Shown here piece after piece: positions 1 to 3,000 of a stretch of DNA of 64,000 bases. Each line of letters opens with the position of its first letter. Positions within the stretch are counted from its first letter, which is position 1. A program made the position numbers. The stretch is from NCBI GenBank assembly GCA_963841915.1, contig CAWJEN010000001.1, positions 1 to 64,000 on the forward strand. The letters run 5' to 3'. The stretch is from an uncultured Planctomycetota bacterium. GTDB lineage: Bacteria; Planctomycetota; Phycisphaerae; Tepidisphaerales; Tepidisphaeraceae.

Positions 1-3000
1 ACTTTCAAGCATCGGCTTCGGCCGGTGCTTTTTTGCTGCGCTTTTCGGTATCCTTACCCCATGAAACCAACGACCCGCTGCTTGCCGCTTTCGCTCGCTG
101 TTTCGTTTGCCGTCGTCTCGGCGGCGTCGGCTGAGCTGGAGCTGGGCGCACCCTTCAGCGACAACATGATGGTTCAGGCCGGCCACACCGTTCCGATCTG
201 GGGCACCGACGAGCCGGGCACCGTCGTCACCGTGCAGTTCGCCGATGCGTCGGCCGAGGCGACGGCCAATGCAGAGGGAAAATGGCGGGTCGATCTGCCG
301 GCCGTCGAAGACGTCGGGCCCTACGAATTTAAGATCGAGTCGGCCGACGGTGAATCACTGACGCTCAGCAACGTTATCGCAGGCGATGTCTGGTTGTGCT
401 CGGGGCAGTCGAACATGCAGTGGTCGGTGCAGTCGTCGTACGGCTGGGAGGATGCGTTCGCCGCCGCCGACAACGACCACATCCGCCTGCTGCACATTCC
501 TAACAACGCCCAAGCCGAGCCGGTCGACGATGTCGAAGCGTCGTGGGCCGTCGCGTCGGAAGCATCAATCAAGGACTTTTCAGCCGTCGGGTACTACTTC
601 GGCAAACAGATTGAAGCTCAAACGGATCGGCCGATCGGTCTCATCCAGATCGCATGGGGCGGCAGCAATCTCCACGCGTGGCTCCCGGCCGATCGGGCAC
701 AGCAGATGGACCGCTACGAGGATCGCAAGCAAGACATCGAAGACAAGCTGGCCGCGGCCGAAGCGGCGCTGCAGGCGTGGATTGATGGTGGCAAGCAGGG
801 CCCCCGACCGGGCGATGGGGTCGCGCCGCAGAATCAGATGAGCCTGCTGTACAACGGCATGACGCACCCGCTGGGCAACCTGCCGATCACAGGTGTTCTC
901 TGGTACCAGGGCGAGAGCGACGCCTGGCGCACCAGCGCCTACGAGGCGATGTTCCGTAACCTCGTGGCCGAGTGGCGTGAGCAGTTTCCCGCGGCCAAGG
1001 AGGAAGTCGTCGCGTACTACGTGCAGCTTCCCAATTTCGCCAAAATAGAAGGCGACGTGTGGCCGAAGTTCCGCGAGATGCAGCGGCAGATGGCCGCTGT
1101 CGAGGGCGACGGCATCGACATGGTCGTGACGATCGATGTCGGCGACGCCAACGACATTCACCCACGCAGAAAGAGGCCGGTTGCCGCACGCCTTGCGGCA
1201 CTGGCGCTGCGCGACGTGTACGATGTCGACGTGCTGGCCGACAGTCCGGAGCCTACGGAGGCGACGGTGCAGGAGGATGGTTTGGTGCGTGTTGTCTTCG
1301 ACGCCGTCGGGAGCGGACTGAAATTGTCCGAGGGCGACGCTCCGTTGGCGCTTGTGCTCGTTGACGCCGACGGCAAATCAGCCGACGCAACGGCGACGCT
1401 CGACGGCCAGGACACGGTGATCCTGAAGGCCGACGGCATCGGGCGTCCGACGATGGTTCGATACGCCTACGCCGCCGATCCCAAGGTGAACGTCGTCAAC
1501 AGCGAAGGCCTCCCGATGACGCCGTTCGTCCTGGATCTGGAGTAAGCGCGAGGCGCTATGCGAGGTAAAACACCTGCTCGAGCGGCTGCATCGCCTTGTC
1601 GGCGGCGCCGGCGTCGAGTTGCTCGAAGTACGGCTTCATCTCCGCCTGCCACTTGGTGTTGATGGCCTCGTCCTGCATGCCGGCAACGGCGGCCTGGAAG
1701 TCGGGCGTTTCGACGTAGCCGATGAGCAGCCCGTCGTCGCGGAGAAACAGCGAGTAGTTATGCCAGCCGTGACGGCTCAGGGCATCGCGCATCTCCGGCC
1801 ACACGTCGGCATGGGCGGAGCGGTAAGCCTCGAGCTTGTCGCGGCGGACCTGAAGCGTGAAGCAGACGCGTTGTGGTTCGGCCATGCCCAGACATTATCG
1901 GGCGGGAGGGCCGTAGGGGACTTCTCGATTCCGAACGCGTGCGCAACGGCGGCCGCGGCGGCGCATGCTGTAATTTGGCTCAACGTGCAACTCCGCGGCC
2001 TGAATCTTCCGCAGGAGCGTCGTAAATAAAGTTGCACCGACACACGGCTACGGACGACCCGCCAACGCACACGGCGGCGCGATACGCGTTCCACGTGGAA
2101 CGTTTTCGACCCCGCCGTCTACTCCCAACGTCCATAGCGGAGGCCAATCGGGGTCGGGAATGTTCCACGTGGAACATTGGCCCCATCGGCCGACTCATTG
2201 GCCGCCGCCGCGCAGCGCAGGCGGCGGCCCCGTACGCTGCGGCCGCTGATGGCGAGGCACTTCCCAGATCGAGATACCTTCGGCGACATCTGCCGTCGAG
2301 ACCCGCGTCGGCCGCTCCGCGTGCCGGTCTACCGGCAGTTGCTGGCCGACAAGATTTCACCCGTCCGTGGCTTCCTGGCCTTGACCCGAGACGACACGGC
2401 TGATCACGCCTTCCTACTCGAAAGCGTTGTCGGCGGCGAGCGGGTCGGGCGGTACAGCTTCGTCGGTGCGAACCCGACTGAGCTTTACACCTGTCGCGGC
2501 GATCGCCAGGACCCGCTGGCCGATCTGCGGTCGCTTCTGGGCGACGTCGCGTATGCAGCGGACGAGGATCTACCAAGCTTCACCGGCGGGCTCGTCGGTT
2601 ACGCCGGGTATGACCTGGTGCGGTACCACGAGCCGCCGCACAAGCTTGGCGGCCCGAACGGTGGGCCCAGCGATGACCGCTCGCTGCCAGACGTCTGCTT
2701 CGGGCTCTACGACCGGCTGATCGCGTTCGACAACGTCGACAAGACGGCCAAGCTCATCGCGCACGCGACGGTGACGGACGACATTGACGCTTCCTACGAC
2801 GCGGCGTGTGCCGCCGTCGATCAACTGTTCGACGCCGCCGATAGCTACGCGGTCGGGCGTGCGAGCGAAGAGTTCGATCCGCGCCACCTGCCGACGCTAG
2901 ATGTCGAAGCGAATCGCGACCGGGCGGATTACGAGGCCGCCGTCGCCAGCGGGGTCGAGTACATCAAGGCGGGCGACATTTTTCAGTTCGTGCCGTCGCT

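Follow-up and report, generated by a model that had tools for sequence, protein, structure and literature searches.

Many genes of the planctomycete genome analyzed here carry, immediately in front of the start codon, a TANNNT hexamer that we take with high confidence to be the -10 box of sigma-70 (RpoD) promoters placed for leaderless or near-leaderless mRNAs; the transcript ends and the ribosome pathway we infer from the sequence. On this explanation, which as a whole we regard as very probably correct, approximately 35-40% of the genes that come first in a transcription unit, and 26% of all called genes, are predicted to be leaderless or nearly so. The mechanism has already been described in other bacteria; the novel elements are the lineage, how strong the signal is within a single genus, and the dense packing of genes that accompanies it.

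The starting point was an initial annotation of a 64,000-nucleotide stretch of DNA (hereafter the window), which had read the hexamer as a promoter box used genome-wide. The promoter reading was strengthened by the use of the same box at tRNA genes, by its avoidance on both DNA strands and by its conservation between orthologues, as described below, but the word "genome-wide" had to give way to a large minority, since 1681 of 2757 starts carry neither the box nor a Shine-Dalgarno (SD) word. Part of these signal-less starts are miscalled, and others may have unstructured, slightly A-rich leaders.

Frequency and position of the TANNNT box

The source genome of the window, G000, is treated here as a member of the Tepidisphaeraceae (class Phycisphaerae, phylum Planctomycetota); it comprises 3.63 Mb in 6 contigs, with approximately 64% GC, and is 93.8% complete. 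It was annotated with a self-trained gene caller, which sets starts by coding likelihood and a start-codon prior, ignores upstream motifs, and returned 2763 genes. TA-rich stretches score as non-coding in this caller, a bias that may slightly favor starts lying directly behind a box. Miscalled starts also occur, e.g. that of L22, which was called late. A gene was counted as boxed when TANNNT was present at -16 to -11 from its start, and seven windows of the same size further upstream served as controls. We distinguished divergent genes, co-oriented genes with a gap of at least 40 nt, co-oriented genes with a gap of 1-39 nt ("tight") and overlapping genes.

By this measure 335 of the 974 divergent genes were boxed, i.e. 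34% at called starts, with 23-29 in the controls. Co-oriented genes behind a gap of at least 40 nt gave 225/1150 (controls 28-42), and those behind a gap below 40 nt, overlaps included, gave 168/633 (controls 2-13); here 153 of 387 tight genes and 15 of 246 overlapping genes had the box. Dinucleotide shuffles of the same 20 nt produced a mean of 44 and a maximum of 53 boxed genes, compared with 333 of 966 real divergent genes. The box of divergent genes was located at -12 in 117 cases, at -11 in 68, at -14 in 52, at -13 in 44 and at -10 in 1, and for all non-overlapping genes the corresponding numbers were 40 at -16, 65 at -15, 102 at -14, 89 at -13, 251 at -12, 169 at -11 and 7 at -10.

The initial annotation had cautioned that its starts depended on the gene caller, and this concern was met by a count in which no caller takes part: among all 9808 genomic TANNNT sites an ATG followed at spacers of 5, 6, 7 and 8 nt in 2.2, 3.5, 2.2 and 2.3% of cases, compared with 0.9, 1.7, 1.0 and 0.9% for TANNNV, where the ATG excess was absent. 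When any candidate start within 150 nt was accepted, 451 of 966 divergent genes were boxed against 80-108 in the control, an excess of approximately 41% that agrees with the 39% of unit-first genes originally reported. Where only one start was possible, the box preceded 32 of 74 divergent genes and 35 of 131 co-oriented genes. Both the enrichment and the peak at -12 of the earlier counts were recovered; the exact numbers were not reproduced, the gene set and the limits of the classes being different.

Promoter character of the box

Of 50 called tRNA genes three calls of 94 nt were dropped, and 31 of the remaining 47 carried the same hexamers at -23 to -14, with 0-6 in six upstream windows. A TTG at a spacer of 16-18 nt was found before 19 of the 40 nearest tRNA boxes (controls 0-3). 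The marks by which a sigma-70 -10 element is recognized, namely T1, A2 and T6, action as DNA with an occurrence also before untranslated RNAs and, in strong promoters, a TTG at 16-18 nt, were all found. Before gene boxes TTG at the same spacing was present in 40 of 711 cases, which is no excess over the controls (30-46), and an extended -10 (TG) was looked for at gene boxes and not found. A consensus promoter scan of window positions 1-4200 returned 0 promoters.

Inside the genes of G000 a T at +5 after TA was depleted, with O/E values of 0.46 on the sense and 0.55 on the antisense strand, and the control offsets +3, +4, +6, +7 and +8 gave 0.90-1.13. The intragenic O/E of TANNNT (sense/antisense) was 0.46/0.53 in two congeners, 0.70/0.77 in other family members and 0.84/0.88 in four genomes of other classes. 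Avoidance on both strands points to an effect at the DNA level. Within the box, information is confined to positions 1, 2 and 6 and the middle is G/C-rich (e.g. TACGCT, TACCGT, TAAGCT): T at position 6 accompanied 117 of 131 TA dinucleotides at -12 as opposed to 3 of 14 at -20, and the third base was C or T, hence no stop codon, in 57 of the 117 boxes at -12. The base directly after the box was G in 47%. C occupied -1 in 74-75% of the genes boxed at -11 or -12 compared with 53% of the unboxed genes that start with ATG. The share of TTG starts was halved (23/711 boxed versus 124/1792 unboxed); both observations are expected if the first base of the start codon is the initiating purine.

The box is also kept in evolution. 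Starts matched in 97 of 220 orthologue pairs with the congener G188 and in 77 of 141 with the congener G187. Where the G000 gene was boxed, the orthologue was boxed in 41/46 (G188) and 26/38 (G187) pairs, compared with 8/51 and 5/39 where it was unboxed. The spacing was conserved as well (rho 0.66, 67 pairs), which makes a long spacer a lasting trait of individual genes. Genes with boxes at -15 and -16 have purines at the usual start positions in 50 of 64 and 24 of 36 cases, as common as in unboxed genes, so that for them a short leader is more probable than a strictly leaderless mRNA. When the start at the AUG was tested for boxes at -13 to -16, a scarcity of purines was significant only at -14 (58/102 versus 72%, p = 0.0015).

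We propose that in this genus a bare -10 box of the housekeeping RpoD, with no detectable -35 or TG extension, would suffice as a promoter, and the rarity of TANNNT in a GC-rich genome (the 9808 sites mentioned above) may be enough for a bare box to fire. From a box 5-7 nt before ATG or GTG the polymerase would start on the first base of the codon and give a leaderless mRNA, and from a box 8-10 nt before the start there would be no leader or one of 1-5 nt. Ribosomes would then bind the 5'-terminal AUG or GUG without SD pairing, as is established in other bacteria, and tRNA genes would use the same box plus a TTG -35. The RpoD of G000 contains regions 1.1, 1.2, 2, 3 and 4, and its best matches are 75-80% identical. 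CarD and RbpA are RNA-polymerase co-factors at mycobacterial and actinobacterial promoters. In G000 and 5 relatives CarD-type PF02559 matches occurred only in frames of 1095-1308 aa (the size of Mfd), with one weak match in a 751-aa frame of G177 as the exception, and apart from this match no stand-alone CarD was found in these genomes; RbpA (PF13397) was found in 0 of 3 genomes that are 94-98% complete.

Several candidate correlates on the ribosome side were rejected. The 16S 3' end GGATCACCTCCTTT is present with an intact anti-SD, as originally stated, so a changed or missing anti-SD does not explain the reduced use of SD. IF3, bS1 and bS21 are likewise present, which removes a loss of IF3 or bS1 as a correlate, and bS21 was present in 41 of 41 family genomes (a tally that includes G183 and holds without it).

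The initial annotation had called SD signals rare. This is correct before divergent genes, where SD words were scarce (86/974; controls 35-65), but they are clear at overlapping genes (93/246; controls 10-15) and at some ribosomal-protein genes, so that SD is reduced, not absent. Boxed genes had SD words in 10 of 711 cases, and before unboxed genes AGGA and GGAG showed the strongest enrichment of all words. The S10-spc-alpha cluster has 22 called genes (19 ribosomal proteins, rpoA, map and secY), of which 0 were boxed at the called start and several have AAGGA, a count that is weak in that these are mostly operon-internal genes and some starts are miscalled. Scoring SD by hybridization energy (≤ -4.5 kcal/mol) was swamped by the GC background (196/700 versus 203) and served for comparison only. 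SD pairing would accordingly be a feature retained for coupled (overlapping) and some ribosomal-protein genes.

With a promoter of a few bases, genes could pack a few nucleotides behind unrelated neighbors. The initial annotation had placed leaderless genes inside apparent operons, a claim that was overstated: the upstream neighbor was conserved in the congeners for 6 of 32 tight boxed genes, compared with 13/18 tight unboxed and 17/23 overlapping genes, i.e. 30/41 unboxed together (Fisher p = 5e-6, with G187 and G188 pooled and not independent). Tight boxed genes would thus mostly be separate units behind an unrelated gene and not operon members. The TAG or TAA stop of the upstream gene supplies the TA of the box in 44 of the 153 tight boxed genes, and we suggest that it often doubles as part of the promoter in this way. 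Gap lengths peak at 8 and 9 nt. At gaps of 8-10 nt the upstream stop was TAG or TAA in 52 of 63 cases and TARNNT was formed in 38 of 63, compared with 107/259 and 16/259 at gaps of 14-39 nt; in the two congeners stops served as boxes in 8 of 25 and 9 of 18 cases. No published report of stop codons acting as -10 boxes came up in a search that reached few subscription papers. The nearest published idea, as far as the accessible part of Palleja et al. 2009 (PMC2784483) goes, is the adaptation of stop codons to an overlapping SD: there, too, the upstream gene is fitted, in its stop codon and in the length of the spacer, to the expression signal of the downstream gene, with the difference that the signal is the SD and not, as here, a promoter -10 box with TAG or TAA at gaps of 8-10 nt.

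The alternative that survives best, although we consider it improbable, is that the boxes, though genuine, act as weak back-up promoters and that most protein is made from longer leadered or read-through transcripts, leaderless translation being minor. The gene boxes are indeed without the -35 seen at tRNA promoters, a terminator would hardly fit into gaps of 1-39 nt, which makes read-through likely, and the S10-spc-alpha genes are unboxed at their called starts. Weak back-up promoters would hardly be expected, however, to keep box and spacing between species with diverged flanks or to stand before genes without SD words, and the accessible part of a study of Deinococcus radiodurans (PMC12340547) reports that a bare TANNNT drives leaderless expression.

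We give even less credence to UANNNU as an mRNA-level non-SD ribosome-binding motif of the Bacteroidetes type (GeneMarkS-2 group B), read by bS1 or the 30S platform in leadered transcripts. The motif does lie at SD distance and excludes SD, tight co-oriented genes are boxed as often as divergent ones, and bS1 and bS21 are present. An mRNA motif is nevertheless difficult to reconcile with a box before 31 of 47 untranslated tRNA genes, with TTG at -35 spacing, or with its avoidance on the antisense strand; the box is also nearly absent at overlapping genes, and most tight boxed genes do not belong to conserved operons. The group B pattern, in which the same non-SD motif stands before first and internal genes, within the mRNA and with no promoter, is therefore not the one found here. 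A gene-calling artefact, whereby apparent boxes arise because in-frame TAA/TAG stops or AT-rich patches directly upstream dictate the called start, could draw on -12 being in frame with the start, on the upstream stops among the tight boxes and on the caller's bias against TA-rich sequence, but it is refuted by the caller-free ATG excess and the tRNA result and runs against the enrichment at the out-of-frame positions -11, -13 and -14, TAC/TAT boxes as common as TAA/TAG ones, the required sixth T, the boxed single-start divergent genes and the boxes kept by orthologues.

Boxed genes within the window

Of the 47 called genes in the window 14 carry the box, and a further one does if the first gene starts at position 61. 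The example given in the initial annotation was rhaM at 1556..1930; the gene is indeed boxed, at -12, and the open reading frame itself covers 1556..1885 on the minus strand and encodes an L-rhamnose mutarotase of 109 aa (Pfam PF05336, E = 1.8e-28, residues 6-108 over profile positions 1-105). Its putative -10 box, TAATGT at 1892..1897 (minus), lies 6 nt before the ATG, and transcription is predicted to start on the A at 1885. The additional case is a SASA-family esterase (61-1545, plus), for which the ATG at 61 was chosen manually and is not the caller's start; a putative box TATCCT at 49..54 (plus) is at -12, and just upstream of it a terminator-like hairpin followed by a T run is located at 7..30 (plus), one such structure compared with 2.3 ± 1.5 in shuffles, which is not significant alone.

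Downstream of rhaM a trpE-like gene (2249-3730) has a candidate box of the long-spacer class, TACGCT at 2233..2238 (plus), at -16 (-15 in the G188 orthologue), and probably a leader of a few nucleotides. A SHOCT-domain gene (3772-4128), 41 nt behind trpE, follows TAGACT at 3760..3765 (plus, -12), and the isocitrate dehydrogenase gene (9845-11311), behind an 18-nt co-oriented gap, follows TACCTT at 9833..9838 (plus, -12). On the minus strand, the predicted boxes are TAGGCT at 12167..12172 (-12) for the gene 12160-11321, which has no Pfam family, and TAACGT at 13388..13393 (-13) for a STAS-domain gene (13380-12943). Two putative boxes stand back to back: TAAAGT at 15075..15080 (minus, -14) before an FHA/secretion-ATPase gene (15066-14134) and TACAGT at 15212..15217 (plus, -14) before serS (15226-16497).

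A TTG-started class V aminotransferase gene (17665-18813) is preceded by TAAGCT at 17653..17658 (plus, -12), a GH2 glycosidase gene (23954-21366), behind a 29-nt co-oriented gap, by TATGTT at 23962..23967 (minus, -13), and a GntR regulator gene (26933-27661) by TAGTCT at 26917..26922 (plus, -16). Overlapping candidate boxes, TATAGT (-15) and TAGTAT (-13), occupy 43856..43863 (plus) before another SASA-family esterase gene (43871-45364). The remaining two are TACGCT at 56852..56857 (minus, -12), before a GTG-started LacI regulator gene (56845-55823), and TAGCGT at 62341..62346 (plus, -12), before the gene 62353-63996 with no Pfam family. In four of these genes (rhaM, serS and those of the LacI regulator and the aminotransferase) the Pfam profile begins within 1-6 residues of the called start. 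The starts of serS, where residue 1 aligns with profile position 1, and of the LacI regulator, where residue 2 does so, are supported by this.

Known leaderless systems and distribution among relatives

The comparisons in this section draw on the accessible portions of the papers cited. GeneMarkS-2 group C is defined by a Pribnow box near first-gene starts and by frequent leaderless transcription (Lomsadze et al. 2018, PMC6028130). Like group C and the TA-led genes of Zheng et al. 2011 (PMC6028130, PMC3160421), in which TANNNT lies approximately 10-12 nt before first genes in 25-50% of units and the others keep an RBS, G000 has its Pribnow box about 10 nt before first genes (peak at -12/-11), a predicted leaderless share of first genes between the 34% at called starts and the excess of approximately 41%, and an RBS at internal or leadered genes, though most unboxed genes are without an SD word. 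Group C comprises 90% of Actinobacteria, 97% of Deinococcus-Thermus and 2 of 52 PVC genomes; the two PVC genomes have 51% of first genes leaderless, and of 16 Planctomycetes 11 are in group A and 3 in group X (PMC6028130, Table S4). By subtraction, these two must be among four genomes, two of Chlamydiae and two of Planctomycetes; as one of the latter lies outside Planctomycetia, a Phycisphaerae genome may already sit in group C. Planctomycetes are not named in the main text of Zheng et al. (PMC3160421) and are absent from that of PMC12641261. The single planctomycete of Nakagawa et al. showed a leaderless-or-S1 bias (PMC5397173), and SD use in Phycisphaerae is given as 46% (PMC10783764). We found no published report of leaderless transcription in Phycisphaerae in a search that reached few subscription papers and stopped short of the per-species lists of PMC6028130 and PMC3160421.

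Promoters of Mycobacterium tuberculosis SigA (Cortes et al. 2013, PMC3898074; PMC10055193) share with those described here the TANNNT, no conserved -35 (and here no TG extension), a G/C-rich sequence before the box, a pyrimidine before the purine start, ribosomal-protein genes that are not leaderless and a boxed tRNA-synthetase gene (here serS), and TANNNT is depleted within M. tuberculosis coding sequence (PMC10055193). The difference is that here neither RbpA nor a stand-alone CarD was found, and that the leaderless state is here predicted from sequence. D. radiodurans has a bare TANNNT 6-7 bp ahead of approximately a third of its genes, which drives leaderless expression and was tested by mutation (PMC12340547). 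Deinococcus-Thermus (PMC12340547; D. deserti, PMC4007540) further resembles our genome in AUG and GUG starts, in a -35 that is optional and strengthening and in a class with leaders of 1-5 nt; the spacer differs, 6-7 bp there compared with 6 and then 5 here (251 and 169 genes versus 89 at 7), and the controls from Deinococcus and Thermus yielded no bS21, which is present here. Applied to the D. deserti plasmid P1 our pipeline scored 22 of 149 genes as boxed (13/58 divergent) with the peak at -12, and differential RNA-seq of 131 P1 mRNA starts gave 27% without leader and 11% with a leader of 1-5 nt (PMC4007540, Table 1). Judged on these 38% with leaders of 0-5 nt the pipeline probably undercounts leaderless genes, although a plasmid poorly represents a chromosome. 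On P1, a small sample, 1 of 19 tight co-oriented genes was boxed and none via a stop codon, unlike in G000.

Relatives were analyzed as samples and not as whole genomes, approximately 400 kb each for G188 and G187 and 80 kb each for ten other family members; 80-kb subsamples of G000 gave 15-34%, so values for single genomes are rough. Divergent genes were boxed in 86/264 (G188) and 67/237 (G187) cases, and in 70/501 in all for the ten other family members (range 7-25%, controls approximately 20), i.e. 28-33% in the genus and 14% in the rest of the family. Ten further genomes, seven labelled as the same class and three reached via other loci, gave 52/437 (controls approximately 22), with G048, G064 and G118 at 18-22% and the rest near background, and five genomes of other classes were at background with 9/229 (controls approximately 16). 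The excess over control was 26-31% in the genus, 4-21% in the ten family genomes and absent from the five. Elsewhere in the family 3 of 48 tight genes were boxed. The excess of boxes and that of SD words ranked inversely (rho -0.51) over 26 genomes, in which kin are not independent and from which G094 (72% GC, 33 genes called) was left out.

The kinship of the sampled genomes was taken from SecY identities only. As a tentative idea, this genus of Tepidisphaeraceae, which belong to the Gracilicutes (PVC), may recently have shifted from SD-led operons to leaderless single-gene units with a bare -10 and no CarD or RbpA, upstream stops being selected as boxes and TANNNT purged from coding sequence, and more than half of the transcripts may then be leaderless. 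If this is true, leaderless expression would be a derived, fast-evolving trait with living intermediates in one family, in opposition to the view of Zheng et al. (PMC3160421) of an ancestral remnant; among the genomes sampled here the signal peaks in a single genus, with lower values in related genomes.

For annotation, start-codon and operon calls in these genomes should make use of the box, short gaps often not being operons. The genus adds one planctomycete lineage to the bacteria with heavy leaderless use, which are mostly Terrabacteria. The gradient within the family provides close relatives for studying the exchange of SD use for leaderless starts and the ability of a sigma-70 to work from a bare -10 box in the absence of CarD or RbpA.

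Spacer length and start codons of boxed genes

In boxed genes, i.e. those with a TANNNT -10 promoter element at -16 to -11 before the start codon, the choice of start codon varies with the length of the spacer. Genome-wide, a spacer of 5 nt (box at -11) was followed by GTG in 69 of 169 cases, compared with 64 of 251 at 6 nt (box at -12), while the figure for GTG starts at spacers longer than 6 nt was 4-24. The isocitrate dehydrogenase gene in the window (9845-11311, plus strand; PF18324 C-terminal domain) carries its box at -12 within an 18-nt gap. The S10-spc-alpha ribosomal cluster of the source genome (contig C5, 355-372 kb; loci L244-L245) has wide gaps between called genes, mostly 26-150 nt, with C/A-rich leaders and AAGGA-type Shine-Dalgarno (SD) sequences before some genes only.

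Split genes, repeats and atypical calls

Few boxes and more SD words are found in the carbohydrate-use island (window ~21-62 kb), which is possibly acquired and decaying; within it, fragments of genes for a sodium:solute symporter, a sulfatase, a DHDPS-like protein and an esterase lie at 29648-30436, 37517-38491, 41307-43634, 52797-53765 and 59242-59757. Pfam profiles matched an FHA and secretion-ATPase (PF00437) gene at 13416-15066 (minus strand) as two overlapping pieces, profile 12-146 and 146-368. Since the congeners gave one continuous alignment over 13420-15004, this is a frameshift, by assembly error or decay. Orthologue checks gave 4/386 split genes.

The word TTCCACGTGGAAC, which has a palindromic core, is repeated in the intergenic stretches on either side of trpE (2089-2100, 2162-2177 and near 3740-3751) and may be a REP-type repeat. 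An FtsI/PBP3-like penicillin-binding protein gene with transpeptidase and dimerisation domains (Pfam; 6255-8174, minus strand) adjoins clpX. Elsewhere in the genome, three 94-nt ARAGORN tRNA calls (C3:24777-24870, C5:289986-290079 and C5:526622-526715) have atypical 5' ends, lack a promoter box and are probably false calls or pseudo-tRNAs.

Boxed starts in other Phycisphaerae families

Three genomes from other Phycisphaerae families (G048, G064 and G118), sampled at loci L129-L132, L219-L222 and L231-L234, showed 18-22% boxed starts and have kept SD signals at 22-36%. The start-adjacent box trait thus recurs beyond Tepidisphaeraceae.
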